Sequence record: EU863408
Length of the DNA: 64,000 bases
Strand: one strand, 5' to 3'
DNA from: Escherichia phage JSE
Notes under the pieces: model-generated
The model's database searches: none
Seen by the model: the letters and a program-made list of their open reading frames with translations, nothing else
Told to the model about the DNA's origin: nothing
In this document: piece after piece, positions 18,539 to 37,467 of the stretch
Layout: every line of letters starts with the position of its first letter
Position numbering within the stretch: position 1 is the first letter of the stretch
Made by a program: the position numbers and the translations under genes

Positions 18539-19002
18539 CATTATGTTCAGCGTGGTTCGCTACTCCCGCGCCCGTTCTCTTGCGAACTGCTACATGTCAC
18601 CATGTAGATCAGACTATATCACATTCTCATAGAGAATCCTGCCATTTCGAATCGCTTGATTCTACTCTACTCGGTTCGTTACCCTTTCGATAGTCGTTGA
18701 ACAACTGCATCTTTAAGCTCATTTTGATCAAACGGTGTTCTCTTACAGTATCCGCTATAATTCTTCACCCTGATACGGATTAGACACCAGTTTAATGTAG
18801 TCGTTTAATGCTTCCTCGTTATGTATTTCGTACTTTCTTAAAATGTCTTTCATCTCGCGCCTCCAATGTATATCAATATCTATATACATTATAAGACACG
18901 TTAGCTCAAAATGCAACTGCTGCTGATTGTCTCCTTAGAGATTTCCCAGCAATTAAGCAGGTTATTCGATCACTGTCACCAGTGAAAGCCCCATATCAGT
19001 TT
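18539..19002 (-). mobile_element. group I intron in gene 43 (464 nt, no endonuclease ORF)
   Basis: exon 1 ends ...TSL (CCCU|) then in-frame stop; intron AAACUGAUAUGGGG...GAACAUAAUG|; contains UUCAACGACUA and GAUAUAGUCU cores; splicing restores DLTSLYPSII. Confidence 0.8.
18755..18853 (-). CDS. small intron-internal ORF (32 aa)
   Basis: hand-translated MKDILRKYEIHNEEALNDYIKLVSNPYQGEEL; SD GGAGG; no endonuclease motif. Confidence 0.25.
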   Translation of the reverse strand: MKDILRKYEIHNEEALNDYIKLVSNPYQGEEL

Positions 19003-20204
19003 AGGGAAGTAAGGTCAAAGCTCATCATCCAACGGTAAGCATTCGGCACAGGTTCTTTTACGAATGCGCCCGGATAAGTCTGCTTAGGCTGTATCTTGTT
19101 CTCTGGTACTACTTTACCCTCAGCTTTCAGAGATCCGAAGATAATAGCATCCCATACTTTCATCGGGTTATAAACATGGTTAAATTTAATCTTTGCATAG
19201 AAACATAGGCTATACACCAGATCGATAAATCCGCGCTTTTTATCAATCGCCAACACACGGTCAACGTCGCCGATGTTATAATCGATGTAAAGTTGATGGT
19301 TGTCATCACGCAATTTCTTTAACGGACCATCATAATCAACCTTACCGATTCCTGTCTCATATTCAGCAACATAATCTAACGCATATGTTGGTTGAGTCGT
19401 AAAGCTAAATTTCTTGTACAGGTCAATATAATCAAGGCTTTCGATCCCCATGATCGTAAATGCTTCACGCTCGTTGCCAAAATCATCCTGTGAGATTCGG
19501 GATTTAATCTTACCGCACGGGCTTAGACGGTTAGCGGTTCTACTTCCGAACTTATTACTGATACGTTTAATGATATATGGAATATCGAATGTTTCTGTGT
19601 TCCAGCCAGTGAAACCAACGGGTCGGTTTTCCTCAAAGAATCGGATGTATTCTAACAGCAATTCATCTTCTGTGTCATAGACGTTATAAACAACGCGCTC
19701 TACAATATCAGGTCGAAGAATAGACTTGCTAGATTCCCAGATTTCACCGTTTTTTCCTTTCAAATCAAATACAAAGAAACGATCATGTACGGAATCATAA
19801 TGCGTAATTGCATCGATAGGATATTTCGCTTCTTCTGGTTTAGGAAATTCTGGGGCAGTGACCTCGATATCAACCCATGCTACACGGATTTTATTTCGGT
19901 CATATCGAATCTCGCCTTTATACGTATCAGACAGATAGGAGATGATAAAGTCATCCATCCCTAGCGCCTCCTGCCCCATTTCTCCCATCTTTTTACGCCA
20001 TTTGTTGGCCTCGTTCATAGATGGGAATTTTTTAGCAATGCAAGGCTTGCCATAGATATCTTTATAATTCGTAACCATACCAGGCGCGGCATGATGAAAT
20101 AAAGTTGGCGTATATTCAACGTAACGCTCTTGTTCTTGTCCAGCATCATCAATATAACGCTCGTAGATCTTATCACCCACTCGCTCACATGACAGAAAAT
20201 ACAT
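19003..20204 (-). CDS. 43: DNA polymerase gp43, exon 1 (N-terminal and 3'-5' exonuclease domains)
   Basis: track ORF 18996-20234; start at ATG 20202-20204 (SD AAGGAG; MYFLSCERVGDKIYERYID matches T4 gp43 N-terminus); Exo motifs; ends at SFDLTSL. Confidence 0.85.
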
Positions 20205-20236
20205 AATATAAACTCCTTCACTTACGAAAGACACTC

Positions 20237-20265
20237 ATTATAGGGGAATCGACTTAGTTTGTCAA
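20237..20265 (-). promoter_or_regulatory. sigma70-type promoter upstream of gene 43
   Basis: minus strand TTGACA, 17-nt spacer, TATAAT. Confidence 0.55.
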
Positions 20266-20286
20266 TACCCCTATCCCATCAGTATC

Positions 20287-20649
20287 TTAGCGTCCGATCT
20301 GATATTTCTCTATCAGCGTCCACTCTTCTTTCTGTTTGAAAGACAGTACACGGAAATTATTAACTTCGGTAGTTTCAAAATCACTATCAATCAGGGTACA
20401 CAGATTCCACTGCGCAAGAAGTTTTGCAATGTTATTACGGCGTAATTCATCTTCCCACGTCATTTTAACACTACGACCATCTAATTTCAACAACTCCTTG
20501 AAATGAACGATGTAATAGCGCCCTTTCTTCTGGAGAATATGACAAGACTGATACAGTGTCTTGTCTCGATTGTTGGCAATGCCGCAGCGGGTTAAAGTTT
20601 CCTTAATTTTAAGGAAGTTTTCAGGACTAATCAAATTAATTTCAATCAT
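20287..20649 (-). CDS. regA: RegA translational repressor
   Basis: 120 aa; near-identical to recalled T4 RegA (KETLTR, YQSCHILQKKG, NNFRV). Confidence 0.9.
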   Translation of the reverse strand: MIEINLISPENFLKIKETLTRCGIANNRDKTLYQSCHILQKKGRYYIVHFKELLKLDGRSVKMTWEDELRRNNIAKLLAQWNLCTLIDSDFETTEVNNFRVLSFKQKEEWTLIEKYQIGR

Positions 20650-20650
20650 T

Positions 20651-21229
20651 TTACCACCTTTCTATAATCTTTTTAAGTCGTTTCCTTTCTGTCTGATTCT
20701 TAGTAACACCCGCCAAAAGTTCATCGGTCGCATACGGTTTAATGTGCTTCAATAACTTGTCCATATATCCCTTTTCATTAGCCAAATCGAGATAAAACCG
20801 GGCGTCATCCATATTTACACAATATGCTTTCGCCACTGCCATTAAAACCAATTTTTGGTCCAATTCTTCTGTTAGTTTAGCCCATTTACCGTATCGTTTC
20901 CCCTTAGAAATACTCTGTAAAAGATAATCAAAATGCATTTGATCTGGGAGGCCATGACCGATTAAATTCATCACATACGCGCTATATAGGCAATCTGCGT
21001 GCTGGGAAAGAGCGGTGTTAATCCATCTCTGATTATATGCAGAATTGTTTCCCACATTAACACGCTGTTTATCTAAGGTGATATGATCCATCAGAGCAAA
21101 TAATGCATTGTCGGTTTTCTCGGTGAATGTGTCAGCTAATTCAGACACCTTTTCCCAATCACGAGAGCGCCATGCAATTTCATGCTCGTTTAATTGTGTA
21201 TCATCTTCACCGAAAAATTGACCTAACAT
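20651..21229 (-). CDS. 62: clamp loader small subunit
   Basis: 192 aa; QLNEHEIAW and GKRYGKWAKL match T4 gp62. Confidence 0.85.
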   Translation of the reverse strand: MLGQFFGEDDTQLNEHEIAWRSRDWEKVSELADTFTEKTDNALFALMDHITLDKQRVNVGNNSAYNQRWINTALSQHADCLYSAYVMNLIGHGLPDQMHFDYLLQSISKGKRYGKWAKLTEELDQKLVLMAVAKAYCVNMDDARFYLDLANEKGYMDKLLKHIKPYATDELLAGVTKNQTERKRLKKIIERW

Positions 21230-22203
21230 TATACGAACTCCAATTCAACCATTAATTGCATTAACAAAAAGACAATGTGAATCTCTTTATCAGCCGCGTG
21301 CGCAAACATCTGATTATTTTCACCGATAATCTCAGTGAGACGAATAATAGAAGCTGGCTTAACTTGAGTATACAACTCAGTATAAAGTTTCTTGACAAAT
21401 TGAGCGTATGTATTGGTATAGCGTGGTGCGAGTTTACGCACATTAGCAAACTGTTTAGTTTTAAGTGCTTCCACCACATCGGTTACTTCGGTATTGCTAC
21501 TTTCGATAACCATGCTCAATACGCCAGCATCAATTTTACCATGTTTAGCGTAGCGGTCCAAAAGTTTCATTACGCGCCGGAAGTCTGGGAAGTTCTGCTT
21601 AACCAGTTCCGCTAATACGCGCATTTCTTCTACTGGCACACCTTCTTTATCAAGAATTGCTTTACACCGGACGATCATTTCTTTCATCATGCGAAGCTGA
21701 TCATCTTTAGTCGGAGATCCAAACGTGATGGGGTCAAAACGAGATCGTAACGCTGGGATAATACCTTCTAGATCGTTTGCTGTGATAATGAATGTCACAT
21801 TGTTTGAGTATGCCTCAGAGAAACTACGCAAGTGTCTTTGAGCGTCAGCCAACCCCGCTCGGTCATACTCATCGATAATAACAACTTTGCCCTTTTCTCG
21901 TTTTTCTTCATCGAGTGATACACTCTGCGCAAAGCGTGTAATCTCATCGCGGATAAAATCAATCTTACAATCTGCGCCGTTAACAAACAGATAATCAACA
22001 CCCACATCTTCGCAAAGCGCCTTAGCAACGGTTGTTTTACCAGTACCCGGCGATGGGCTATGCAGGATCATAGAAGGGATTCGGCCTTGCTTAACAATCT
22101 GCGCGAAGATCTTTTTATCTGCTTCCGGCAGAATACATTCAGAAATTGATTTCGGACGGTATTTCTGTTCCCACTGAAACTCATTTTCATTAACACTCAG
22201 CAT
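21229..22203 (-). CDS. 44: clamp loader large subunit (AAA+)
   Basis: track ORF 21229-22218; ATG at 22201-22203 with SD GAGAGGTG; Walker A SPSPGTGKTT. Confidence 0.9.
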   Translation of the reverse strand: MLSVNENEFQWEQKYRPKSISECILPEADKKIFAQIVKQGRIPSMILHSPSPGTGKTTVAKALCEDVGVDYLFVNGADCKIDFIRDEITRFAQSVSLDEEKREKGKVVIIDEYDRAGLADAQRHLRSFSEAYSNNVTFIITANDLEGIIPALRSRFDPITFGSPTKDDQLRMMKEMIVRCKAILDKEGVPVEEMRVLAELVKQNFPDFRRVMKLLDRYAKHGKIDAGVLSMVIESSNTEVTDVVEALKTKQFANVRKLAPRYTNTYAQFVKKLYTELYTQVKPASIIRLTEIIGENNQMFAHAADKEIHIVFLLMQLMVELEFV

Positions 22204-22236
22204 ATAATCACCTCTCACAAATTACATCATTAAAAT

Positions 22237-22256
22237 GGGGAGTATTTACACTCCCC
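22237..22256 (-). promoter_or_regulatory. intercistronic RNA hairpin between genes 45 and 44
   Basis: minus RNA GGGGAGU-GUAAAU-ACUCCCC then AUUUUAA, just upstream of gene 44 RBS. Confidence 0.4.
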
Positions 22257-22268
22257 ACAAACATTATA

Positions 22269-22955
22269 TTAGTCGGTGTAGCTGGAGTCAAGGTCACACG
22301 CGATCATATAAGATACGGTTTCACTTGCCAGCCATACAGCCTTACGGCGAGTGAAGCTCAGTTTGTAATCGCCGAAGTCCGTAGCAACCAGTTTCATGTT
22401 ATCTTTACGAATAAAGAAATGGAAGTCTGCGGTTCCGGTATATTCGCCCATATCAAGACAAAACATCTCATTAGGATTATTTTTGTCAATCTCTTCCCAA
22501 CCTTTGATCATCAGACGACCATCAATCGGTAGAAATTCAAGGCGATCCACTTTAAGCTGATTGCTCATTTTCATAAGCTGTTTCAGATCGTCGTTGCTCA
22601 GTTCGTAATCTACATCGCTTGCAGGTGGAGTAACTCGGCCTTTCGGTGATACGATAGCAGCAGCACTAGCACCAGGATAATTAATTTTCAGACGATCATT
22701 AGACACACGAATGTTTCCGGTGCGGTTATCAACCGTAATATCTGCTTCATCGCCCACCAGATTCAGAATGCCCAGGAAAGAGTTAAGATCATAGATCCCG
22801 ATTTCGTGTTCCAGTTCTTGATTCAGAGTCGCTTCACCATATACAACGTTTGTCATGTTTTTGGTGATTAGGACGTTTCCTTTTTTCAGGATGATACCTG
22901 GGTTAATAGCGGAAAAGTTTTTCAGGGTAGCAATGGTTTCTTTAGTCAGTTTCAT
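22269..22955 (-). CDS. 45: sliding clamp
   Basis: track ORF 22269-22958; ATG at 22953-22955; 228 aa as T4 gp45; N-terminus MKLTKETIATLKNFSAIN. Confidence 0.9.
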   Translation of the reverse strand: MKLTKETIATLKNFSAINPGIILKKGNVLITKNMTNVVYGEATLNQELEHEIGIYDLNSFLGILNLVGDEADITVDNRTGNIRVSNDRLKINYPGASAAAIVSPKGRVTPPASDVDYELSNDDLKQLMKMSNQLKVDRLEFLPIDGRLMIKGWEEIDKNNPNEMFCLDMGEYTGTADFHFFIRKDNMKLVATDFGDYKLSFTRRKAVWLASETVSYMIACDLDSSYTD

Positions 22956-22985
22956 CAAATCACCTTTATCATGTTAATCAATTAA

Positions 22986-23363
22986 TTACGGGTTTACTTC
23001 GTGCTCATTTTGAATCTTTAGCATTCTTTCGATAAATTTTTTCTCGGCTTCCTTATCGGATGAGTGAGTATACTTCAATCCAATGTAAGCTGTCAAGTAT
23101 TGTTGCAGAGCATAGACAGTAACAGGATTCTTTGCGGTCTTTTTTCCGTCGAGATATACCAGATCACCACGAACATCAAACGCAAGTTTACGACGAATCA
23201 CATCATCAACAAATTTATCTAGGACAAAATACCACTCAATACACTCTATCCCGTGACGGTAGTTCATTACATCATTATCTTTGATATAGTCAAACGGAAT
23301 ATGACATAATTTACTATTTTGTAGGATGAATAGCATTTGTTCTTTTAAGCTCATACGTTTCAT
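22986..23363 (-). CDS. rpbA: RNA polymerase-binding protein RpbA-like
   Basis: track ORF 22986-23384; positional (just upstream of gene 45) and size match; start choice uncertain. Confidence 0.45.
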   Translation of the reverse strand: MKRMSLKEQMLFILQNSKLCHIPFDYIKDNDVMNYRHGIECIEWYFVLDKFVDDVIRRKLAFDVRGDLVYLDGKKTAKNPVTVYALQQYLTAYIGLKYTHSSDKEAEKKFIERMLKIQNEHEVNP

Positions 23364-23367
23364 TCTA

Positions 23368-23760
23368 TCACTTCCCATCAGCAATTGCGATCAGACGAGT
23401 TACTACTACGCTAGCGGCTTCAATCAGCAGTTCATCAGTGTCAATCTGATAACCCTTTTCGAGAATATCTTTACCTCGAATAGTTTTAGCGCCTTTAGCA
23501 ATTGAATCATCGTAATACTTGCGCATTGCCGCGATCCATTCTTTTTGCACCATATCATCAATATGCGCGTACAGTTCAAAGCGTGCTTGCTGCGGGATAA
23601 CCTTCATTTTAGCTTTCTCGCTTTCTGGCATTTGTAGTACCCATGCTTTACGGATCTTGTTCATTGCTCGGTCAAATTCGAGACTGGTTTTCTTGTTCTG
23701 AATGTCTGCTACAGTAATTTTAGCCAGGTTTGCGGAAGTAGTCATAATATTAATCTCCAA
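23368..23760 (-). CDS. hypothetical protein
   Basis: 130-aa ORF. Confidence 0.45.
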   Translation of the reverse strand: MEINIMTTSANLAKITVADIQNKKTSLEFDRAMNKIRKAWVLQMPESEKAKMKVIPQQARFELYAHIDDMVQKEWIAAMRKYYDDSIAKGAKTIRGKDILEKGYQIDTDELLIEAASVVVTRLIAIADGK

Positions 23761-23775
23761 AATAAAATCAGTATA

Positions 23776-24006
23776 TCACGTTCTAAAGTTTGTTGCAACC
23801 CCAGCATCAGGGTAATCAAGTTTATCAAAGTTGGGGACCAGCATAAACTCATGATGACGACAAGACAACATTTTTGTTATGTCCGCATCGCTGTATATGC
23901 TGTTTTTCATATCCCCCATACTAACTACATATTCTTCACCGGAATATAGATTGATTAATGTATACAATTCTAACTCCGGCTGCGTTACTCTGTCAAATGT
24001 TAACAT
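23776..24006 (-). CDS. hypothetical protein
   Basis: 76-aa ORF. Confidence 0.4.
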   Translation of the reverse strand: MLTFDRVTQPELELYTLINLYSGEEYVVSMGDMKNSIYSDADITKMLSCRHHEFMLVPNFDKLDYPDAGVATNFRT

Positions 24007-25675
24007 TCATTTCAGTGAATCGCCCACGTTTAACCATCTTGAGATGACGGCTAAAATCATCAGGGTTATGGTCACGATGGCTGATAATATACACGTTATC
24101 ATCTAACTTGTCAATGATGGAATCAAGTGCTTTTACGCCCTGAACGTCCGTAGCCCCATCATAAATTTCGTCGAGTACCAACAAAGAAATATTAGTACCA
24201 GATACTTTACCAGCAACATCACGCCATGTAAAGAGCATCGCAAGGTCAATACGTGCCTTTTCGCCTTGACTGAATGATGTATACGAAAACGATTCACGCC
24301 CCCGTGATTTGATTGTTTCGTTAAACTCTTCATCTAGCGTAAAGATATAATCCGCTTCCATGATATCAAGATAATACGCAATCCGATCATTGAAATATGG
24401 AATATATTTCTTGACGATAGACGCCTTAACACCGGAATCCTTCAACATTTCTGTTACAAATCCACGGTGATATTTTTCAAGAACTAGCTTTGATTTTTCA
24501 TTAGTAATCTCTACCAGTTCGTGTTCCAGTTTAGCAAGTTCTTCGGAATTGTCAACCCTTTCTTTTTGCAGTTCCTGCATTGCTTTCTGGATCTGTTTAG
24601 CCCGACCTACAGATGCCGTTAAATTCGCTCTCTGTGACTCTATAGCGCGTTTAATTTCCAAGACCTTAGTTTGTGCTGTCTGGAAAGAATTGGCCTTCTC
24701 TGCGTATTCTACGCGTTTCTCGTCAATCAGAGACAGTTTATGTTCTGCTTGTGCTTTTTGTTCGCGTACAGCTTGATCATTACCTTGAATGATCGGTTGT
24801 GTGCACGTAGGACAGATCCCGCCTTTCTCGTGCATATGGATAACACGGTCAAAGTTCTGGATCTGCGCACCAATCTGTGCGATAGCCGTATTAATTTTAG
24901 CCAATGCCGCGCTAGGATCTTCCGGCATAACAACAGCCAATAGCTCATCGGTCAAGCGCGTTTCTTCGGCTTTAAATGCTTTAGCCGATTCTACCTCTTT
25001 ATCATACATATTCTGCAAACGCTGTAGATTCTCGGCACTAGCCTTGCTCGCGTCCTCTATGTACTTTTTATGAGTGTTGATTTGTTGCTGAACGTGATTA
25101 GCTTTCATTTCCTGCATTTGGATATTCTGGGTAATCTCGCGCACATACGCTTTATTCAGTTTATCCATTTCGCCTAGCGTAGCAATATCAAGCAAATCCT
25201 CGACCAGTTTACGGCGACCCGCTGCCGGAAGACTCATAAACGGAACATAACCAGCAGTGCCTAAAACAACGATCTGTTTAAAGCTGGCTAGGTTCATTCC
25301 TATGATACCTTCAAAATATTCCTGAAAGTCTTTGGTGCTTGCGCTCTCGTCGATCTTTTGACCGTCTCGATGCACTTCGAATACTTCCGGTTTTTGACCA
25401 CGTTTGATATAAAACTCTTTCCCGTCCAGTTCAAACCAGACTTCGACTAACAGTTTCTTTTTGTTGACGCTGTTAATCAATTGGCCTTTCTTGATACTAC
25501 GAAACGGTTTACCGAACAACACAAAGCAAAGCGCCTCGATCATGGTCGATTTACCAGCACCGTTAACACCAGTGATTAGTGTCTTTTTGAATCCGTCTAG
25601 CTGAATCTCAACAGGTTCAGCACCCACGCTCATTATATTTTGATAGCGCAAGGTTTTAAAATTTAACTTTGCCAT
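23993..25675 (-). CDS. 46: recombination endonuclease subunit (Rad50/SbcC-like ATPase)
   Basis: track ORF 23993-25690; start MAKLNFK at 25673-25675; Walker A GVNGAGKST; CPTC zinc hook; long match to T4 gp46. Confidence 0.9.
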   Translation of the reverse strand: MAKLNFKTLRYQNIMSVGAEPVEIQLDGFKKTLITGVNGAGKSTMIEALCFVLFGKPFRSIKKGQLINSVNKKKLLVEVWFELDGKEFYIKRGQKPEVFEVHRDGQKIDESASTKDFQEYFEGIIGMNLASFKQIVVLGTAGYVPFMSLPAAGRRKLVEDLLDIATLGEMDKLNKAYVREITQNIQMQEMKANHVQQQINTHKKYIEDASKASAENLQRLQNMYDKEVESAKAFKAEETRLTDELLAVVMPEDPSAALAKINTAIAQIGAQIQNFDRVIHMHEKGGICPTCTQPIIQGNDQAVREQKAQAEHKLSLIDEKRVEYAEKANSFQTAQTKVLEIKRAIESQRANLTASVGRAKQIQKAMQELQKERVDNSEELAKLEHELVEITNEKSKLVLEKYHRGFVTEMLKDSGVKASIVKKYIPYFNDRIAYYLDIMEADYIFTLDEEFNETIKSRGRESFSYTSFSQGEKARIDLAMLFTWRDVAGKVSGTNISLLVLDEIYDGATDVQGVKALDSIIDKLDDNVYIISHRDHNPDDFSRHLKMVKRGRFTEMNVNI

Positions 25676-25919
25676 TAAGCCACTCCGCAATCACACATTC
25701 CATAATATTAAATGCTAACACATCTTCATCAATGTTGTAAACACTTGCTGCCTTCACTTTAACTAATGTGTCTCTGCGATCTGGCAGCATGATCACATAA
25801 TCCAGTGTCGCAGGATCATATGTCATAAAGGGATCAACATAAATCCCTTTATTCAATGCCAGATATTCGCGAAGACCTTCTATAACCCTGTGTCTAAGGT
25901 AGGTCATCGATAGAATCAT
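25656..25919 (-). CDS. hypothetical protein
   Basis: 87-aa ORF. Confidence 0.4.
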   Translation of the reverse strand: MILSMTYLRHRVIEGLREYLALNKGIYVDPFMTYDPATLDYVIMLPDRRDTLVKVKAASVYNIDEDVLAFNIMECVIAEWLNGKVKF

Positions 25920-26512
25920 TTTAGTTTATGTTCCTCTAAAAATTCTTCAATTTCACCTTGCAGGTCTTCCGCTTGCTGTTCCAGAATATCGCGAAATTCA
26001 CCTACAGTCAAGCGGTAATCACATTTCACCAGTCGATGCGGGAGAATATACCCTTTATACATTGTCTCTGACGCTTCTAGGAATACCCCACTATGCATGA
26101 CAGAGATCCAACCTGTTAACGTCAATGGAGTATTCGGAAAATAATACTTGCTGGATTGTTTCCACTGGACGAAAGCACCATATACAATCGGATTATATTC
26201 ACCAACCACACTCTTAATAATGGATTCTACTTTGTCTTTTACAAAGTCGCCAATGCCCATAGTCACCATCAATTCTTGTGGGTGAATCACTTTAAGGTAA
26301 CGACGGTAGCCGTCATCATACCACAGCTTAACCACTGGCTGACCCCACATTTTAGCAATACGCGCTTTCAGATAACCATAGATCGGATTCTTGTAATATG
26401 ATTGTTTTAGTGTGTACGCGTGCACCAATTCAATAAAATATTCCATTGCTATCGAATCAGGATCAGCCGCGACCATAGTCGTATTCATAATATGTTCCTC
26501 GTTCAATTTCAT
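25916..26512 (-). CDS. hypothetical protein
   Basis: 198-aa ORF. Confidence 0.5.
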   Translation of the reverse strand: MKLNEEHIMNTTMVAADPDSIAMEYFIELVHAYTLKQSYYKNPIYGYLKARIAKMWGQPVVKLWYDDGYRRYLKVIHPQELMVTMGIGDFVKDKVESIIKSVVGEYNPIVYGAFVQWKQSSKYYFPNTPLTLTGWISVMHSGVFLEASETMYKGYILPHRLVKCDYRLTVGEFRDILEQQAEDLQGEIEEFLEEHKLK

Positions 26513-29239: not shown

Positions 29240-29279
29240 TTCGCACCCTCGCTATTATTTAGGAAATAACCCTTTCGGG

Positions 29280-30749
29280 CTATTCCCCATTGCCATTATA
29301 CTTTCTTTGCTTAGTTATCCACACTCTAACCATCTCTACTGATTCACCGTCAGACGGATCAAGAGTTTTTCCTTTTTTCTTCATGCGATACTTAAATCCG
29401 TTAAATCTTGCATTCTCTTGCTCGTTAAAGTCGAACATCTTTTTAAATGATTTTCGCCCTTTACGCTCACCACATTCTAGCGGAATCATTCGGTCTGTTA
29501 TTACATTGGCATTAGGTAGAAACGTTTTTAGATAATCTACCAACGCCCAATCAGGAACATATAGATTAACATTCTCCTTGCTCTCGTTGTCTCTCAGGTT
29601 ACAACGCAAACATAATTGAAATGCTGGTTCCAGATAATCAGACACATGACGCGCTTTCAAAAACTCGTTTGTCGGGAGATCGCAACTATTAGCAAGACCT
29701 TTTAAAATATCAATCTCCCATCGTTGAGGGTTAAAGCTGAACATCACAGCAACATTTTTATGATGAATGTAAGAGTTAAGACCATAAGATCCGTAAGGTA
29801 TCCGCTCACCAATACCATTTGTGCACGCTTCTCGGTCCCGATTCACGGTATAAATGAAGTCATCGCCACATTCATTTTTAACCATATCAACAAGACGTTC
29901 AAAGGTATTGTTTGTTTCTGACTGGTGACGCGACCAGCGTTCGGAGTCAGTCATAAGGATGATGTTAACTCTATCTGTATTTTTATACTCTTTGAAATAT
30001 AGTCTGGATTCTAGCGCACTCGGAACAAAATCGCAATTTGCATAGTATCGTAGATACTTCCCGCTATATGTATCAAAGAGATTTGCACATGCTATCGTAA
30101 CCTTTTTAAAGTCTCCCCACGTACCGTGTTTGTTATCGTTCAAGAAAACAATTTTCGACCCATTCTTCCGGTGTCCTTCGTTATGTTTTACCATAACGTT
30201 GATTTTCTTCTCTAATAACGCCTCATAAAGCCCTCGAAGAGAAGAATCGATCATATCAGTACCATCCTTTGCACTTTCTATCTTTTCTTTGATAGCGGCC
30301 TTCTCAGAGTCTTTTAGAACTAAGTTCTGTAGGCATTCCGATTCGTCGGCGATTGGTTCGCAATGCTTCGTGATAAGTTCAAGATTAGACTTAAACGGAT
30401 ACTCATTAAATTCAACCAGTTGAGGAACTTCATCAATGTAAAGAGCATAATCACCAAACATTTTTGAACGTTCCATATTAGATAACGCTGTATGTGTAAT
30501 GAATATCACATCAGCACCGTCTTTAACTGATTGCATTATCGACGCTTGCACTGTCTTAAGGCTTCTTAGTCTTGTGCTATCGATCAAGACAGCACGACCG
30601 CCCATTCTTTTAAACTTATTGTAAGATTGTTCACTTAAAACACGAGATGGCGAAGCAATAACCGCTTTTTCTTTTGTCTCTAGGACGTGGGAAAGTATAG
30701 CATCAGTTTTCCCCGCCGCTGGCAATGCGATTAATGTTTCAATCTTCAT
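29280..30749 (-). CDS. P-loop NTPase of unknown function (helicase-like Walker A/B)
   Basis: 489 aa; Walker A LPAAGKT near N-terminus; Walker B-like LYIDEVPQ; no match to a T4 core gene that I recognise. Confidence 0.55.
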   Translation of the reverse strand: MKIETLIALPAAGKTDAILSHVLETKEKAVIASPSRVLSEQSYNKFKRMGGRAVLIDSTRLRSLKTVQASIMQSVKDGADVIFITHTALSNMERSKMFGDYALYIDEVPQLVEFNEYPFKSNLELITKHCEPIADESECLQNLVLKDSEKAAIKEKIESAKDGTDMIDSSLRGLYEALLEKKINVMVKHNEGHRKNGSKIVFLNDNKHGTWGDFKKVTIACANLFDTYSGKYLRYYANCDFVPSALESRLYFKEYKNTDRVNIILMTDSERWSRHQSETNNTFERLVDMVKNECGDDFIYTVNRDREACTNGIGERIPYGSYGLNSYIHHKNVAVMFSFNPQRWEIDILKGLANSCDLPTNEFLKARHVSDYLEPAFQLCLRCNLRDNESKENVNLYVPDWALVDYLKTFLPNANVITDRMIPLECGERKGRKSFKKMFDFNEQENARFNGFKYRMKKKGKTLDPSDGESVEMVRVWITKQRKYNGNGE

Positions 30750-31054
30750 TAGAAACCCTTACGTCGTGCTTTCTGGCATTTCTTGATCATTTTATCAGAA
30801 ATTTCGCGCTTAGGTGCAATCTCTTTCACACCGAAAGCACTAATGCCAAATTCAGAGAGAATATATTCAACTAACAATTCACGCACACGCGCTTTACCGA
30901 TATTCACGCCGTTATTTTTCAGATATGTCTGGCCTTCGACTTGCATCAGATCTAAATCTGCGTCGGTAATATTGATTTCTTCCATGCGCCCAAATCGAGA
31001 ATAAACCATGTGTGCGATTGCATTGTGTACTAACATAATATATTCCTCACTCAA
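30749..31054 (-). CDS. hypothetical protein
   Basis: 101-aa ORF, ATGA-coupled. Confidence 0.45.
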   Translation of the reverse strand: MSEEYIMLVHNAIAHMVYSRFGRMEEINITDADLDLMQVEGQTYLKNNGVNIGKARVRELLVEYILSEFGISAFGVKEIAPKREISDKMIKKCQKARRKGF

Positions 31055-31057
31055 GAA

Positions 31058-31216
31058 TTACTTAATGATACTTACTTTACCAGATCCGTGACAATGAGCA
31101 CAACACCCATCACCACGCAATCCTGTTCCGTTACAGTGTTTACACTTCTTCAACGGTAAAGCCATTATAGCAAATAAAGCAATAATGAACACCGAAACTA
31201 AATTCTCAATAATCAT
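31058..31216 (-). CDS. small membrane protein with DnaJ-type zinc finger
   Basis: track ORF 31058-31282; start at ATG 31214-31216 (SD GGGAG); one TM then CKHCNGTG...CAHCHGSG. Confidence 0.45.
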   Translation of the reverse strand: MIIENLVSVFIIALFAIMALPLKKCKHCNGTGLRGDGCCAHCHGSGKVSIIK

Positions 31217-31475
31217 AAATCTCCCTAAGTTCTTTATAGCCTCCAATGTGCTCGTTGTCAATGAATATCTGGGGGTATACAAATCGGAGGCTCTTTGAGT
31301 TCAGCCTCCCCGCCAGTTCTTCAATCATATCACGGTCGGGAATAATGTCAACCCCAACCTGCTTGAATACTGGTTTAAGTGTATACGGAATACCCAGATC
31401 ATCCAGTAGCTTCATTGCACTAATACAACCATAACAATGATAAGCCTCTTTCGGTATGCCGTATATCTCGATCAT
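31206..31475 (-). CDS. nrdH: glutaredoxin-like protein NrdH
   Basis: 89 aa; CYGC active site; YPQIFIDNEHIGGY. Confidence 0.8.
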   Translation of the reverse strand: MIEIYGIPKEAYHCYGCISAMKLLDDLGIPYTLKPVFKQVGVDIIPDRDMIEELAGRLNSKSLRFVYPQIFIDNEHIGGYKELREIYDY

Positions 31476-31948
31476 TTCTCAGCCTTTAATCGTTCTAGTT
31501 CTTCTTCCAGTTCCTTGATCCGTTGGTCACGTTCAAAGTCACGCTGCAACTTAGTGGCGAATACTCGTTTAAACTGATTGTAATCATCGATTTTAAACAC
31601 TTCTTCTTCGCCATAGCGACGTACAGAAACTTCGTAGTTATTGAAGAATTGTTGCATCATTGCTTCGGATGATAGTTCTGCCGATACTACTTTAAAATAT
31701 TGATCTTCTGTAGGCGAAAACCAATTGCAAGCATAAAGATAAACCTTTTCATTGTCTGGACACTGGTAAGCCTTACCATCGATTTCAATCACAGAAACAT
31801 ATTCAGGTATAGTAGATGAATCAATAGCTAAGACTTTAAACGAACGGTCCCCGATAAACTCGGAGATCACACGATTCGCATCACTGGTTGCAAATGCTTT
31901 ACGCGCTTGTTCGTTTTTCCACTGATAGGTCATACCAACAACAAACAT
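31472..31948 (-). CDS. paralog-family protein (WEVGKTY-type repeat, family A)
   Basis: track ORF 31472-31972; start at ATG 31946-31948; shares N-terminal and beta-rich core with next three ORFs. Confidence 0.5.
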   Translation of the reverse strand: MFVVGMTYQWKNEQARKAFATSDANRVISEFIGDRSFKVLAIDSSTIPEYVSVIEIDGKAYQCPDNEKVYLYACNWFSPTEDQYFKVVSAELSSEAMMQQFFNNYEVSVRRYGEEEVFKIDDYNQFKRVFATKLQRDFERDQRIKELEEELERLKAEK

Positions 31949-31949
31949 A

Positions 31950-32774
31950 TTACCAACCTCGCTCTTTACCAATCAAAAATTCAACTTCACGACGTTTAAT
32001 GTCTTCTTGAAGGTCTTTAATCTTCTGGCGATCTTGCATTATTTCGTCCATCTTGTCAAGTGCTGCGATGAAATCATCGAAACGTTCAAAGGTTTTACCT
32101 TCATTTGCTTCGCCAAATTTAACCATTGTCAGGCCGTAACGACTACTAAACAGACGTTTCAACTGTCCAACGATTTTAGAATCAGTGGTTATAACTTCCA
32201 ATTCTTCTACTTCACGAAAGAATTTTCTATCAGAATCAATAAACCAGCTAGTTCCCTTATGGTCGCTATCTTCTGTTGCGCTCATTAGAGTATGGTCTTT
32301 ACCATCAATTTCAATTACATCAATTTGCCCACATGGACTAACATTTTTAACAGTAAAAGGTCTATAATTTATTGCTCGTGCAATAACATAATTAAGGTTA
32401 GATACGTTTTCAGCATAATGGCAGAAGTCTGTCATAGCATTCGCATCTTTCCAAGTATAAGTTTTACCAACTTCCCATTTCTGGGGAACTTCTTCAACTT
32501 CACGAAAGAATTTTCTATCAAATGGACTAAAGAAATATGTTGCAGTCCAAATGTCTTTTCCTGTAGCAGTTTTCGCCGTATGATAAACACCGTCTAGCTC
32601 TATTGCATCAATCCAACCGTTACCCTCGATCTCGATGATGGTAAATGGCTTGTCACCAATAGCTGCACTAATATCGCTGTTAAGTGGAGAAAGAACACCT
32701 TCTCCGTTAGTAATAAACTCAGTTTTAGCGTTTTCGTCTTTCCAGGTGTAAGTTTTACCAATTTCCCATTTCAT
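31950..32774 (-). CDS. paralog-family protein with two tandem repeat modules (family A)
   Basis: 274 aa; MKWEIGKTYTWKDENAKTEF and QKWEVGKTYTWKDANAMTDF each followed by ...IDVIEIDGK... Confidence 0.55.
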   Translation of the reverse strand: MKWEIGKTYTWKDENAKTEFITNGEGVLSPLNSDISAAIGDKPFTIIEIEGNGWIDAIELDGVYHTAKTATGKDIWTATYFFSPFDRKFFREVEEVPQKWEVGKTYTWKDANAMTDFCHYAENVSNLNYVIARAINYRPFTVKNVSPCGQIDVIEIDGKDHTLMSATEDSDHKGTSWFIDSDRKFFREVEELEVITTDSKIVGQLKRLFSSRYGLTMVKFGEANEGKTFERFDDFIAALDKMDEIMQDRQKIKDLQEDIKRREVEFLIGKERGW

Positions 32775-32786
32775 AATATATTCCCC

Positions 32787-33251
32787 TTAACCGATTTTAT
32801 CAAGTTCGTTTAATGCTTTCTCTGCTTCCTGTATAGCTTGCACCCTTTCCGGCATTTTGTCAAGAAAATCTTTCAACTCTTCAAAACTGGAGATATGACG
32901 CAAGGCGTTAGCACCGATAGCCGCATGTGATTTGCATTCAAAGCGGATTTTATAATTATCCATCGCCAATTTGAGAAGATCAATTAATTTAGATTCTTCT
33001 GGAATAATAATTTCTTCAAATCTGCTACGGTCATGATCCAGAAACCAACAAGATAGACCTACATCGGTTGAACTCATATAAGTTCCATCATGAAGATAAA
33101 CAGACCGCACGTATCCTTTTTTCGCATCAACCGACGCAACTTTAAACGGTAATCTCAGATATTTCAAATAATCAACATCATACCATTTAAAAAATTGGTT
33201 TGCATCTTTTACATCTTTCCACGCATAGGTCTTACCAACTTCCCATTTCAT
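32787..33251 (-). CDS. paralog-family protein (family A)
   Basis: track ORF 32787-33266; start MKWEVGKTYAWKD at 33249-33251. Confidence 0.55.
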   Translation of the reverse strand: MKWEVGKTYAWKDVKDANQFFKWYDVDYLKYLRLPFKVASVDAKKGYVRSVYLHDGTYMSSTDVGLSCWFLDHDRSRFEEIIIPEESKLIDLLKLAMDNYKIRFECKSHAAIGANALRHISSFEELKDFLDKMPERVQAIQEAEKALNELDKIG

Positions 33252-33255
33252 AATA

Positions 33256-33783
33256 TCATCTCTCATTTTTGATACGTGATTCTAATTGGATCATACGGTC
33301 GCGCGTTTGCTTGTATTCGCGGATAGCACCGATCCGGCTAGGCATACCATCAAGCACGCTCTTAATACCTTCTAGGGTAGTAATTTTGGCAATGCTATTA
33401 TGTAACCCCATCTTATCGATCAACTGAATGTCGTAGGCTTCCATAAGCAGACCCAGGCGTTCTAAAGTTAGGTCTTCTTCTTTTTCTTCCGATTCTGGAA
33501 TCTTAGGTTCAATAGTAACTTCGGTAAAGAAACGACGCTCACCCGACCAAAACCACACACCGGAACAGCCAATAGGGGATTCTTTTAACGTCATAGAGTC
33601 GAAATTACTACCAATAATAGTAATTTCTCTAACATCACCATCATCGTCAAGGTCTTCTACCCTAAACGGGCGACCAGCCAACAAGTCCACAATACATCTG
33701 TTAATAGACGACGAAAATTTAGTCAGTTCGGCTTTCGACGCTTCGCATTCAATCTTGTAAGTTTTACCAACTTCCCATTCCAT
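33256..33783 (-). CDS. paralog-family protein (family A)
   Basis: track ORF 33256-33792; start MEWEVGKTYKIE at 33781-33783 with SD GAGGTG. Confidence 0.55.
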   Translation of the reverse strand: MEWEVGKTYKIECEASKAELTKFSSSINRCIVDLLAGRPFRVEDLDDDGDVREITIIGSNFDSMTLKESPIGCSGVWFWSGERRFFTEVTIEPKIPESEEKEEDLTLERLGLLMEAYDIQLIDKMGLHNSIAKITTLEGIKSVLDGMPSRIGAIREYKQTRDRMIQLESRIKNER

Positions 33784-33793
33784 AATAATCACC

Positions 33794-34297
33794 TCAAATA
33801 ATTTTCACTGGAATACTATTAACAATCTTGTATTGTACTTGATTGTCAGACCCCCGCCACGGCTTCTTCGTTGGCATATCTTTAATATAACGCCCATCGA
33901 TGAACATGTCAACTGATTCTACAATTTTTCTTTGCTCATCATTCAATTGGTCAAGGGTATAACCGGACCATAGCCAAATATCTTTATTTGGCATCCATGA
34001 TTTTACTTCATCGATGATCCGCTGTACACCCTTTAAATTGCGTTTATACAACGGATCACCACCTAAGAATGTTAGCCCCTGAATAAAATCAGGTCTAAGC
34101 AGATCCAGAATCAATCCCATTGTATCATCGGTGAATGGTTCCCCGTTCTTAGGATTGAGTAGGCTAGCATTAAAGCAACCATCACATGCGTGTGAACATC
34201 CGGTAACGTAAAGGGAGACTCTCACTCCCTCACCGTTAACCATATCACAATCTTTAATATCGGCATAGCGTAGTTTGCCGTATGTATCAGAACTCAT
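33794..34297 (-). CDS. nrdG: anaerobic ribonucleotide reductase activating protein (radical SAM)
   Basis: track ORF 33794-34303; CSHACDGC radical-SAM cluster motif. Confidence 0.85.
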   Translation of the reverse strand: MSSDTYGKLRYADIKDCDMVNGEGVRVSLYVTGCSHACDGCFNASLLNPKNGEPFTDDTMGLILDLLRPDFIQGLTFLGGDPLYKRNLKGVQRIIDEVKSWMPNKDIWLWSGYTLDQLNDEQRKIVESVDMFIDGRYIKDMPTKKPWRGSDNQVQYKIVNSIPVKII

Positions 34298-34439
34298 ATT
34301 CAATTACCCCGAACTCGTTTACAATCTGCGCTTTATAGTAACCACCGCGAGATGCTAATAGATAAGCTGGGCTTAGGTATTCGTATTCACGGATTTCTAC
34401 TTGTGCGTTTTCAGTTTCCCAAATCAGTAAAGTCCACAT
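34287..34439 (-). CDS. small hypothetical protein (50 aa)
   Basis: track ORF 34287-34514 trimmed to ATG 34437-34439 downstream of promoter; AGGAGAATCAAAT-ATG. Confidence 0.45.
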   Translation of the reverse strand: MWTLLIWETENAQVEIREYEYLSPAYLLASRGGYYKAQIVNEFGVIEYEF

Positions 34440-34481
34440 ATTTGATTCTCCTGTAAAGTTGTATCTCGTCTTGATGAATAT

Positions 34482-34510
34482 AGTATAGGGGATCTCGCGA
34501 TCCCCGTCAA
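34482..34510 (-). promoter_or_regulatory. sigma70-type early promoter (PeSL-like)
   Basis: minus strand TTGACG, 17-nt spacer GGGATC-GCGA-GATCCC, TATACT. Confidence 0.55.
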
Positions 34511-34514
34511 GCAT

Positions 34515-35069
34515 TTATTTAAATTTTTCGAGAGATTTCAACCACAGGCGGCCTGGTAGGTACTCTCCGGCAAACATGAAATTGTCATCTGGATAAGAAC
34601 GCAGCATATTCAAAATAAACTTCCGGCACTCTTCGTAATCTTTACGTTTAAGATAAATCACATTCTCGCCAGTACCGATCACACCTTTTCTGTATCCATG
34701 CTCTTTACGCACAGACCATTGTACAGTATCTTTTTTAACCCGAATCACAACAGGTTCCCAATACCCAGCGCATCCGGCTACACCACACGAACAGGTGAGG
34801 AAGTATTGACCTTTTGCTTTGTTTTCCTCCCACCCGATATTAACCGGATGCCATTCGTGAAACAAGGCTAAAGCATCGTGTGTCTCTTCGATCTGTTTAT
34901 TGTCAATTCTTACCGTAACCATCCATACAGGGATCTTATTTGTTGGTTCATCATCATAACATGAATCATCATCAATATGTTCTAATGTCATGTCAACATT
35001 AATTGATTTTGCGTGTTCCATGTGTCGTTGTGCTTTACGCTTACGATTCAATAATTTAGACATATTCAC
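34515..35069 (-). CDS. hypothetical protein
   Basis: 184-aa ORF; Cys cluster CSCGVAGCAG. Confidence 0.5.
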   Translation of the reverse strand: MNMSKLLNRKRKAQRHMEHAKSINVDMTLEHIDDDSCYDDEPTNKIPVWMVTVRIDNKQIEETHDALALFHEWHPVNIGWEENKAKGQYFLTCSCGVAGCAGYWEPVVIRVKKDTVQWSVRKEHGYRKGVIGTGENVIYLKRKDYEECRKFILNMLRSYPDDNFMFAGEYLPGRLWLKSLEKFK

Positions 35070-35075
35070 CTCACA

Positions 35076-35612
35076 TTATAAACGAAATTGTACGCCATCA
35101 AAATGAGAACTTGCATTACAGCTATTATAGATAATAAATCCTGTATCTGGCGCTTGTACTACAAATTGACTTGCATTAACAGCGGCAACAGTAAAAATAC
35201 GATCCGTGAGACTATGTTTAATTTCTGTCCCAACTTCCAATGGGATGTACTCTTCCTCTTCGACCCCAACACCAAAACAGCCTTCTTCATGGTACGCCTG
35301 AATCTTTTTATCACAATTACACAGTTTAGCAAAATCAAGCGTATACAATTCACGAGAGTTGTCGGTATAAACCAACACAGATTGATTATGATAGCGAATC
35401 ACATACAGGTTATTATCTTCGTCAACGACACAAAAACTACGGATTTGTGTGCCTTCGCCTTTACTCCAGCAGATATTAACAACCGTTCCCATAATAAAGA
35501 AACTTTCTTTTGTACCAAAGCTAGCCAGTGTGCTAGCGTGCATTTTAACAACTACACCATCACCAATTTCTAACTTGCGAATTTTAATTTCTTTATTCAA
35601 TATACAAAACAT
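35076..35612 (-). CDS. hypothetical protein
   Basis: track ORF 35076-35645; start at ATG 35610-35612 (SD AGAGAGGA) downstream of promoter. Confidence 0.5.
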   Translation of the reverse strand: MFCILNKEIKIRKLEIGDGVVVKMHASTLASFGTKESFFIMGTVVNICWSKGEGTQIRSFCVVDEDNNLYVIRYHNQSVLVYTDNSRELYTLDFAKLCNCDKKIQAYHEEGCFGVGVEEEEYIPLEVGTEIKHSLTDRIFTVAAVNASQFVVQAPDTGFIIYNSCNASSHFDGVQFRL

Positions 35613-35633
35613 AATGTTGTCCTCTCTTGTTTT

Positions 35634-35661
35634 CGATGTGAGCATTATACACGAGCTAATC
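35634..35661 (-). promoter_or_regulatory. sigma70-type early promoter
   Basis: minus strand TTGACA, 16-nt spacer, TATAAT. Confidence 0.55.
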
Positions 35662-35667
35662 CGGTTG

Positions 35668-35699
35668 TCAACACCCCAAAACGAAAAAGCCGACCCTTT
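35668..35699 (-). terminator. intrinsic terminator after nrdD
   Basis: minus RNA hairpin CGAUCC-GAAA-GGGUCG then GCUUUUUCGUUUU. Confidence 0.55.
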
Positions 35700-35714
35700 C
35701 GGATCGACTAAAAA

Positions 35715-36707
35715 TTACATGTGCTTAACGCGGTTTACCATCTCGGAGTGTTTCCCGTGGTTAAATGGACGCAGATCAACAGATCCAAGATATCCACTAA
35801 CGCGACGGATAACATTCATCTTTTCCAGATTGTCATTTCCGCAATCAGGGCAAACAAAACCAGACTCGGTCGCTCTCATTTCCTTATTAGATCCGCATAC
35901 ATGACATACATCAGAAGGAGTATTAACACCGAAGTAGTGCAATTTATCCATTGCATAGTCTACTACAGTTTCAAGACCTTTCAGGTTGTTTTTCATGTCT
36001 GGGAACTCAACATAAGAGATCATGCCACCGGACGCCAGCCAGTGATAATCTTTCTCAAAGTCGATTTTCTCAAATGGTGTGACTTTCCGGTCTACGTCAA
36101 GGTGGAATGAGTTGGTGTACCAGTCTTTATCGGTAGCACCCTTAACAATACCAAATTGCTCTCTGTCCAGTCGATTAAATCGATAGCAAAGGCTCTCGGC
36201 TGGCGTACCGTAAAGACTAAACCCAAGTCCGGTTTCGTCCTTCCATTTTTCAGTATAATGACGCAAGATCTTAAGAATATGTTTACCGTATCGCTGCGCA
36301 TCTTCCGAATCAAACGGATGAACACCAAACAGGACGCTCAATACCTCATGTAAACCAATATATCCAAGAGAGATACTAGCGCGACCATCTTTCAGCACTT
36401 CCAAAATTTCATCGTTTTGATGAATACGGAAAAATGCACCTTCTGTATACAGTACAGGAGCAACATTGGCTTTAGCCCCTTTTAAAGCGTCTACGCGACT
36501 CATAAGCGCATCAAAGCAAATAGGCATACGATTAGCTAGCTCTTGTTCGAATAGCTCAATTCTGCGCATTACAGACGCTTTACCAGCACGACGCGCGGCA
36601 ATAAGAGCAATACGCGGAAGATTCAGAGTCACAACACCCAAGTTATTACGTCCGTCTAATACTTCCTCGCCTTTCTCGTTATGCCACACACCCAGGAAAC
36701 TTCTACA
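35715..36707 (-). CDS. nrdD: anaerobic ribonucleotide reductase NrdD, exon 2
   Basis: 330 aa starting CRSFLGVW; glycyl-radical motif RVSGYLG; C-terminal CxxC...CxxC. Confidence 0.85.
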   Translation of the reverse strand, partial: CRSFLGVWHNEKGEEVLDGRNNLGVVTLNLPRIALIAARRAGKASVMRRIELFEQELANRMPICFDALMSRVDALKGAKANVAPVLYTEGAFFRIHQNDEILEVLKDGRASISLGYIGLHEVLSVLFGVHPFDSEDAQRYGKHILKILRHYTEKWKDETGLGFSLYGTPAESLCYRFNRLDREQFGIVKGATDKDWYTNSFHLDVDRKVTPFEKIDFEKDYHWLASGGMISYVEFPDMKNNLKGLETVVDYAMDKLHYFGVNTPSDVCHVCGSNKEMRATESGFVCPDCGNDNLEKMNVIRRVSGYLGSVDLRPFNHGKHSEMVNRVKHM

Positions 36708-37467
36708 CATTATTTGTTCAGGGTAGGTCGCTAATCTACCCCCGCCTTTCGGCTGCTACATGTCGCCATGCAGATCAGACTATATCTTCTATCTTTCGAT
36801 AGTCTACCATTTCGGATCGCTTGATCCTACGCCGCTACATTCATCACGGCTAGTCGTTAGGCATTTCATAGCGGAACTCATATTCATAAGTATTGGTTTT
36901 TCTACCATCAAGAATTGCAGATACATTTTTACGATGCAAGCCCAATGTTTCAGAAAGACTTCTCACGCTTTTAAATGTCTGCTCTTGTCCGGTTTCTTTA
37001 TGGATCGCAGTAACCTTATATGAACGACGTTTGAACTTATAGCACCCGTTTTCGTAACCTTCTTTCGTGTTTTCGCTGTTAGTCCCCCACTCAAGGTTAG
37101 ATGCATCGTTTATAGTTTTATCGTCGTTTTTATGTTTCACATATCGATAGCCGTTAGGATTCGGAATCCAACATTCAGCCACAATAACATGAACACGCAA
37201 ACATAAAGGTTTCTTGTCTCTCCTTACCCTTACTAATGTATATCCGGTATTGTTTTCTATCCAGGTACTCAACTGTTTACCTTTAGGAGAAAACACCCGT
37301 CCATCTTTCGATACCATATATTCGGTATCACGAATTTTTCTAAGTTCCATAATATATCCTCTTATACACATTGGCGTAAAGAGAATATGACCGCTATGTT
37401 TAGCACGGGATTGTCTTCTAGAGAGTTCCCCCGTTTAGGCAGATTTTAGATGAGCTGTTTAAAGTTT
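36708..37467 (-). mobile_element. group I intron in nrdD carrying an HNH homing endonuclease gene
   Basis: exon 1 ends ...SPMG (GGGU|); intron AAACUUUAAAC...GGGGGAACUCUCUAGAAGACAAUCCCGUGCUAAA...CUGAACAAAUAAUG|; cores CCUAACGACUAG and GAUAUAGUCUGAUCUGCAUGG shared with the gene 43 intron. Confidence 0.8.
36850..37350 (-). CDS. intron-encoded HNH homing endonuclease (NUMOD4/HNH_3 with IENR1-like tail)
   Basis: track ORF 36850-37371; start MELRK at 37348-37350 with SD AAGAGGA; HVIVAECWIPNPNGYRYVKHKNDDKTINDASNLEWGT; stop overlaps intron core. Confidence 0.8.
   Translation of the reverse strand: MELRKIRDTEYMVSKDGRVFSPKGKQLSTWIENNTGYTLVRVRRDKKPLCLRVHVIVAECWIPNPNGYRYVKHKNDDKTINDASNLEWGTNSENTKEGYENGCYKFKRRSYKVTAIHKETGQEQTFKSVRSLSETLGLHRKNVSAILDGRKTNTYEYEFRYEMPND

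Follow-up and report, generated by a model that had tools for sequence, protein, structure and literature searches.

The 64,000-nucleotide (nt) stretch of Escherichia phage JSE analysed here (sequence record EU863408; hereafter the window) carries two introns on its minus strand. One lies in gene 43, which encodes a PolB DNA polymerase, and the other lies in nrdD, and their 3' halves are much alike. The question raised by this pair is whether one intron lineage has come to occupy two sites within a single genome. The original prediction proposed exactly this, and regarded the presence of an endonuclease gene in only one copy as consistent with endonuclease loss or intron transposition. We believe, with a probability of roughly 0.9, that the two are independently acquired introns of the T4-type IA2 family, that their shared 3' halves are a conserved core of deep common ancestry, and that the endonuclease gene of the gene 43 intron was deleted later. 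The 3' halves are similar because both introns are members of this family, which has P7, P7.2, P9, the P9.2 loop and the 3' tail in common, and not because of recent copying.

Both are group I introns, and their boundaries are known to the nucleotide. The gene 43 intron (IA2-type, 464 nt) occupies positions 18539..19002 and the nrdD intron (IA2-type without P2, 760 nt) positions 36708..37467, as delimited with the Rfam model RF00028 (Intron_gpI) and by comparison with intronless relatives. The introns and their host genes are all on the minus strand, and the introns are 18 kilobases (kb) apart. Exon 1 of gene 43 (19003..20234, minus strand) ends in ..ACTTCCCT, and exon 2 (17062..18538, minus strand) starts with GTATCCATC, which encodes (L)YPSI. 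Exon 1 of nrdD (37468..38337, minus strand) ends in ..CCGATGGGT, and exon 2 (35715..36707, minus strand) starts with TGTAGAAGT. Read from 19002 to 18539, the gene 43 insert is ..ACTTCCCT/AAACTGATATGGGGC...CTGAACATAATG/GTATCC.. (slashes mark insertion points), with AAACTG first and ATAATG last. Read from 37467 to 36708, the nrdD insert is ..CCGATGGGT/AAACTTTAAAC...CTGAACAAATAATG/TGTAGA.., with AAACTT first and AATAATG last. The minus-strand sequences quoted for both introns in the original prediction are present as written. The gene 43 intron interrupts the Leu codon of PolB motif A (DLTSL/YPS), and the nrdD intron is located between the Gly and Cys codons of SPMG/CRSF, where the Cys aligns with Cys290 of T4 NrdD.

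The two host genes are 96-99% identical to those of RB49-like phages (genus Krischvirus, Straboviridae), and each intron is precisely absent from intronless alleles of these phages. There the flanks are contiguous, and the matching stretches, which span 537 and 441 base pairs (bp) in the records, are shorter by exactly 464 and 760 nt. In each intron, the reading frame coming from exon 1 runs into a stop after two or three codons, and direct comparison with GEC-3S and RB49 showed that intron removal restores FDLTSL/YPSIIRQ (also given as FDLTSLYPSIIRQ) and SPMG/CRSFL. The intronless nrdD site of RB49 reads ..ATGGGTTGTCGTAGC.. In local scans with RF00028, the gene 43 intron scored 42.9 bits (E=2e-9) and the nrdD intron 27.4 bits (E=1e-4), and these were the only two Intron_gpI matches within the window. 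In the whole window (1-64000), no Rfam family reached its gathering score and no tRNA genes were found.

The fold agrees with this assignment. P1, P3, P4, P5, P6, P7, P7.2, P8, P9, P9.1, P9.2 and P10 were located in both introns, which thus contain the core helices P3-P9, the P3/P7 pseudoknot, the U.G pair of P1, P10 and the terminal G of group I introns. In P1, the U that ends exon 1 pairs with G, and both introns end in G. The exon CCCU pairs with GGGG in gene 43, and the exon GAUGGGU pairs with the intron guide sequence GCUCAUC in nrdD (P1 region, window 37449-37474). P10 pairs with the first bases of exon 2 in both introns. P9 has seven base pairs with a GNRA loop on top. In both introns the open reading frame (ORF) is located within the P6 loop and overlaps P6(3'), J6/7 and P7(5') at its 3' end.

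The close match over P7-P9 and the common AAACU start were confirmed. A local alignment of the two introns covered their final 127 and 123 nt. Of its 130 columns, 99 were identical (~76%), and the score was 91, compared with 21.5 +/- 2.4 (maximum 33) for 500 shuffles. The best-conserved part is a 34-nt P7(3')-J7/9-P9 block, GATATAGTCTGATCT[A/G]CATGG[T/C]GACATGTAGCAG, in which 32 of 34 positions match. It is located at 18587..18620 (minus strand) in the gene 43 intron (GATATAGTCTGATCTACATGGTGACATGTAGCAG) and at 36753..36786 (minus strand) in the nrdD intron (GATATAGTCTGATCTGCATGGCGACATGTAGCAG). This raises the possibility that the similarity is no more than chance or the short consensus common to all group I introns. 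Indeed, GAUAUAGUC and the P9 hairpin are part of the Rfam Intron_gpI consensus. However, the alignment lies ~29 standard deviations above the shuffles, and the two introns also agree in P7.2, in J7.2/3, in the exact stem and GNRA loop of P9, in the UAGCGA loop of P9.2 and in the tail CUGAACA..AAUG. These extra shared features belong to the T4-type phage family and not to all group I introns, which makes a universal consensus or chance a highly improbable explanation. The similarity therefore goes beyond what would have undone the proposed relationship, and the two introns are homologous.

The homology does not extend evenly over the introns. Over P7-P9 they are 65% identical, whereas their 5' halves (P1-P6) are only 37% identical. 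A P2 hairpin (UCACUG-GUGA-CAGUGA) is present in the gene 43 intron only, and the nrdD intron runs from P1 directly into P3. P3, P4, P8, P9.1 and P9.2 form in both introns from sequences that differ in both strands, and P8 of the nrdD intron is short. P7.2 is present in both, with one compensatory change from A-U to G-C between the gene 43 and nrdD introns, and P7.1 is clear in nrdD and weak in gene 43.

The shared block was found far beyond this genome. A degenerate 32-mer, GATATAGTCTGNNCTNCATGGNGACATGNAGC, was scanned against IMG/VR and matched at least 120 viral contigs. The exact gene 43 variant occurred in 8 of 125 cores and the exact nrdD variant in 7 of 125, with the window's own two copies counted. 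In blastn searches, 569 and 596 phage records were matched by the two introns. Related cores interrupt genes for capsid proteins (contigs L037 and L054), terminase (L111 and phage YMC13), thymidylate synthase (thyA; L118 and L048) and a phiKZ-type RNA polymerase subunit (L035), as well as nrdD (L028 and L066) and polB (phage PC3). The gene identities at L037, L054, L118, L048, L111 and L035 were read from the translated flanks. The introns of these last six, all uncultivated viral contigs from IMG/VR, are ORF-less, ~270 nt long and carry the same 3' block.

T4 reportedly carries three homologous group I introns of subgroup IA2, in td, nrdB and nrdD (sunY) (Shub et al. 1988, PNAS 85:1151, as cited in PMC2988022). 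The window introns resemble them in core organisation, P7.1/P7.2, the P9 GNRA hairpin and ORFs looped out of the core. The T4 td and nrdD introns contain the block GAUAUAGUCUG..CU.CAUGG.GACAUG.AGC, as the window introns do, and match the degenerate 32-mer, and the T4 nrdB intron deviates at one position (GGTAAC for GG.GAC) and was not caught. With P7.1/P7.2 as extra helices between P7 and P3' and 57-79% identity to the T4 introns over P7-P9, both window introns fall into IA2. Judging from this distribution, the shared block is a consensus sequence found throughout the T4-type (IA2) family of phage introns. By analogy with the T4 td, nrdB and nrdD introns, the likeness of the 3' halves in the window is best read as deep common ancestry.

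A separate observation concerns Acinetobacter phage YMC13/03/R2096 (L128), in which two intron-like cores lie back to back at 2440-3000, upstream of the terminase gene. The first core contains a 40-nt stretch, TTCAACGACTATCGAAAGGGTAACGAACCGAGTAGAGTAG, that is identical to the gene 43 intron of the window. This identity suggests that introns of unrelated phages have exchanged core segments in a mosaic fashion.

The alternative considered in the original prediction is a recent transposition within the genome, between gene 43 and nrdD in either direction, by reverse splicing or ectopic homing, after which one endonuclease was lost or exchanged. The homology over the last ~125 nt, the 32/34 block, the AAACU starts and the location on the same strand, 18 kb apart, would all fit such an event. 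However, recent paralogues should be each other's closest relatives over the whole core, and these two are not. A covariance model of P7.2-P8-P9 (83 positions) was built from a seed of 14 family members, including both window introns, and used to align 115 matches from 100 sources. Both window introns scored 87-98 bits with this model, in whose seed they stand. Across the 115 cores, 96.9% of helix cells were paired, double-sided changes occurred at 17 of 18 pairs and none of 500 shuffles was as good, which means that P7.2, P8 and P9 are backed by covariation. In this structural alignment the p-distance between the gene 43 and nrdD introns was 0.28, and the median of all pairs was 0.325 (interquartile range 27.5-37.3%). 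The partners thus differ at 28% of positions where the family median is 32.5%, and there is no special pairing between them. The nrdD intron was the 35th nearest of 114 to the gene 43 intron, and the gene 43 intron the 21st nearest of 114 to the nrdD intron, ranks that describe this sample and not the whole family. Together with the divergent 5' halves, the P2 found in only one intron and the unlike sequences of P3, P4, P8, P9.1 and P9.2, these values make a recent transposition exceedingly improbable, and relatives, distribution and exon flanks also speak against it.

Each intron has relatives at its own site in other phage families that are closer to it than its partner in the window. The PolB gene of Escherichia phage PC3 (Ackermannviridae), which is gp43-like, is interrupted at the same nucleotide within the Leu codon of SL/YP (..CTCCCT/.../ATATCC). 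The PC3 intron resembles the gene 43 intron in its P2-containing core and its AAUUGCUGGGAA P4, with 59% identity in the 5' half and 62% over P7-P9. It differs in a longer P7.1 and P8 region, in being ORF-less without any endonuclease remnant, and in its polymerase and phage family. The 5' half of the gene 43 intron is 53% identical to that of the T4 nrdB intron, and P7-P9 is 64-68% identical to T4 nrdB and nrdD. The P9.1 sequence GUUCGCAAGAGAAC is nearly the same as P9.1 of T4 nrdB, GUUCAUAAGAGAAC. About 20 IMG/VR contigs matched the 5' half of the gene 43 intron, with scores of 45-81, and did so far better than the nrdD intron of the window. With P2 and the AAUUGCUGG P4 as marks of its core type, the gene 43 intron can be assigned to a P2-containing, nrdB-intron-like subtype that also occupies the same motif-A position in the PolB of Ackermannviridae.

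The nrdD intron has its own set of relatives. Introns at the identical point (ATGGGT/TGTAGA) are present in nrdD of nieznany (Phapecoctavirus), JEP1 (Vequintavirus, rV5-like) and Mushroom (Felixounavirus). They have the same guide sequence GCUCAU, the same P2-less architecture and a homologous HNH endonuclease in the P6 loop with 48-54% amino acid identity to that of the window. They differ from it in the core, which is only ~57-76% identical by region, and in their host phages, which belong to other families. In the 5' half, the window nrdD intron is 71% identical to nieznany, 68% to JEP1, 60% to T4 nrdD and 57% to Mushroom, and over P7-P9 it is 79% identical to T4 nrdD and 76% to Mushroom. 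On the MIZ4-type contig L107, whose 5' half is of the gene 43 type as in the window, a query of the nrdD-type 5' half reached a score of only 33, close to the ~20 of the background. By these features, the nrdD intron would represent a P2-less, sunY-like subtype with an I-HmuI-like HNH endonuclease, found at the Gly/Cys site in four phage groups. The nrdD gene of JEP1 (L125) contains two introns, at 400-1300 and 1501-2262. One is the Cys-site homologue, and the other, upstream of it, is of a different, unrelated type, located after ..TSVNG and equipped with its own endonuclease gene.

Within the genus Krischvirus, the gene 43 and nrdD introns occur independently of each other. The gene 43 intron is present at >99% identity in 12 Krischvirus records (MIZ4, MIZ5, ECD7 in two records, JK32, kvi, Cognac, ELT4, JEP8, G2494, G5211 and PTE-Eco09). 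Among the matches listed, nrdD was intronless in MIZ4, MIZ5, ECD7, JK32, ELT4, G2494 and PTE-Eco09, and kvi, Cognac, JEP8 and G5211 were not among these intronless matches. The nrdD intron was covered at near identity by the phiS record only. In phiS it is also 760 nt long, with 23 differences from that of the window (97% identical), and gene 43 is uninterrupted. RB49 and most other Krischviruses have neither intron, and no record with both was found in the searched collection. Each intron thus occurs alone in other Krischviruses, and the co-occurrence in related genomes that recent paralogues should show was not seen.

The exon flanks give a similar picture. At the gene 43 site, 11 of 39 nt differ from intronless GEC-3S with an identical protein, and the flanks are those of intron-bearing MIZ4. 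The altered footprint consists of the last 11 nt of exon 1 (19003-19013) and the first 19 nt of exon 2 (18520-18538), and its synonymous changes create the CCCU of P1. At the nrdD site, the footprint covers the first 9 nt of exon 2 (36699-36707), with 3 of 9 synonymous differences from intronless RB49. The resulting exon 2 start, TGTAGAAGT, is common to phiS, nieznany and JEP1 and extends P10. These footprints look like co-conversion tracts from two separate homing events, one for each site, and count against a transposition between the sites. Alternatively, the flank changes look like those that would give immunity at a homing site.

The introns could also have arrived independently and then become more alike over P7-P9 by gene conversion. 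Recombination is efficient in T4-type phages, and Bryk and Belfort (1990) are reported to have described T4 introns that exchanged sequence at core elements common to them. Two of the three core differences between the nrdD introns of the window and phiS (643 G>A and 710 C>T) shift toward the gene 43 state. However, both are single transitions that flank P8, and the third (position 734) shifts away from the gene 43 state. No continuous conversion tract can be drawn, since the intervening P8 is entirely different between the two introns. Six further viral contigs, none of them a close relative, also contain the exact nrdD-type 32-mer. Such homogenisation is very unlikely, and with an unrelated P8 between the two changes and the same variants found again in other phages, gene conversion was rejected as the leading account of the similarity.

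The prediction that one copy has an endonuclease gene and the other does not was borne out. The P6 loop of the nrdD intron contains an intact gene for an HNH homing endonuclease of 166 amino acids (36850..37350, minus strand). Its product matched Pfam I-HmuI_NUMOD-like (PF22083) with 32.3 bits (cut-off 27), HNH_3 (PF13392) with 22.1 bits, just under the cut-off of 24.8, and PHROG 59 'HNH endonuclease' with E=1e-37. With an HNH motif and a NUMOD-like DNA-binding domain, it is a predicted I-HmuI-like HNH enzyme. The gene 43 intron retains only a 32-codon stub of an HNH homing endonuclease gene (18755..18853, minus strand; MKDILRKYEIHNEEALNDYIKLVSNPYQGEEL, then a stop). The stub is identical to the first 31 codons of a 274-codon HNH ORF in the MIZ4 intron, and a deletion then breaks the frame. 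Alignment with MIZ4 (..GGTGAAGAAT, the 650 bp, ..GCCAAGAAT/TATAGCGG) placed the deletion junction at 18760..18765 (minus strand), the sole remaining copy of a 6-nt AAGAAT repeat. In the relatives, 650 bp lie between two AAGAAT copies. The deletion removed the HNH motif and 242 of 274 codons and shifted the frame. The long form is present in all 12 database copies, which are otherwise >99% identical, and in the IMG/VR copy L107. The ORF-less state of the gene 43 intron is confirmed as a true endonuclease loss, and what was lost was its own, unrelated HNH gene. No similarity was found between the MIZ4-type endonuclease and that of the nrdD intron, whereas recent paralogues should share an endonuclease gene or its remnant. 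The MIZ4-type protein matched PHROG 12434/655, labelled only HNH or homing endonuclease, and had no Pfam match. The core of the gene 43 intron resembles T4 nrdB, and a homologue of I-TevIII was considered as its endonuclease. This was rejected, since the blastp match to the T4 relic was not significant (E=4.9). Upstream of the stub, a perfect 8-bp inverted repeat (ATGTATAT / ATATACAT) with an 8-nt loop is located at window 18866-18889, just before the GGAGG ribosome-binding site of the residual ORF. It may be a leftover translational control hairpin, by analogy with the T4 intron endonucleases.

The T4 nrdB intron carries a defective I-TevIII (Eddy and Gold 1991, as cited in PMC2993671 and PMC2988022), which is inactive owing to a large deletion (PMC2988022). 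Like it, the gene 43 intron has been kept in an essential gene after an internal deletion killed its HNH homing endonuclease gene, and relatives still have intact versions (RB3 in the case of nrdB, MIZ4/ECD7 and others in that of gene 43). It differs from the T4 case in host gene, in endonuclease and in the deletion itself, which took out 650 bp flanked by AAGAAT repeats. Petrov et al. (2010, Virol J 7:292; PMC2993671) reported that gene 43 of JSE, a relative of RB49, has a putative group I intron in which the endonuclease gene is truncated. They likened it to the T4 nrdB relic, and the nrdD intron is not mentioned there. The JSE intron as described is in exactly the same state as the gene 43 intron of the window. 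This truncated state was already on record for JSE. Searches of the available literature turned up no paper on Krischvirus introns by name and none that mentions an intron in nrdD of JSE.

A single lineage occupying two sites may exist elsewhere. The idea stood as far as the homology of the two window introns is concerned, but not as a lineage that moved within this genome, given that the block is family-wide and that each intron has same-site relatives elsewhere. The closest T4 relative of the window nrdD intron is the T4 nrdD (sunY) intron. Both are P2-less, and they are identical at 22 of 23 nt from the guide sequence to P3 (AGCUCAUnUAAAAUCUGCCUAAA). The host sites of the window introns, PolB motif A and the Gly/Cys290 position of nrdD, differ from those of T4. 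In T4 nrdD (L002, 43535-46385), the intron lies after coding nt 538 (AYE/YEV), ~110 codons upstream of Cys290. It also encodes the GIY-YIG enzyme I-TevII in P9.1, whereas the window nrdD intron encodes an HNH endonuclease in the P6 loop. The T4 nrdD coding sequence contains only two ATGRGT hexamers (AUGRGU, the guide target), at nt 538 and nt 867, and these are both insertion points. We tentatively consider an old site switch within nrdD, between the window and T4 sunY introns, as a possible though doubtful case of one lineage at two sites. In such a switch, the ancestral intron would move by reverse splicing directed by the guide sequence and then capture a new endonuclease.

Several points weigh against two independently acquired, functional members of the T4-type family and should be set beside the evidence given above. 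The IMG/VR comparison set was gathered with the shared block as the search pattern, and the rank statistics are limited to the sample for this reason. Alignments of 83 positions also give little phylogenetic resolution. Neither intron reached the RF00028 gathering score of 50 bits (42.9 and 27.4), probably because of the large ORF-bearing P6 loops. Outside the deletion, the gene 43 intron differs from that of MIZ4 by three substitutions only, and one of them, A for G at position 18553, replaces a C-G pair of P9.2 by a C.A mismatch. With this mismatch and the weak P7.1, the activity of the gene 43 intron may be reduced.

On the reading of independent acquisition, each intron would be a site-specific mobile element that entered the phage lineage by endonuclease-driven homing with co-conversion of the flanks. 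Both RNAs would fold into an IA2 core. Through transesterification initiated by guanosine, they would remove themselves and join the exons of two essential genes. The predicted HNH enzyme of the nrdD intron would cut intronless nrdD alleles in a mixed infection, and repair would copy the intron in. After its fixation, the gene 43 intron would have lost 650 bp of its HNH gene by deletion between the 6-nt repeats. It would now be splicing-competent and non-autonomous, and its mobilisation in trans by a co-infecting MIZ4/ECD7-type phage is conceivable.

In an annotation of this genome, the exons of gene 43 and those of nrdD should be joined across the intron, and neither should be called a split gene. 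The comparison also has a corrective value. A core shared by phage introns should not be taken as a sign that one of them has recently transposed, given that a large family distributed over many phage genes has this block in common. Overall, two stages in the life cycle of a homing element can be seen in one genome. The nrdD intron, with its intact endonuclease, is found across phage families at the codon of a catalytic site, and the gene 43 intron is seen just after the deletion of its endonuclease gene, and both have what look like co-conversion footprints.

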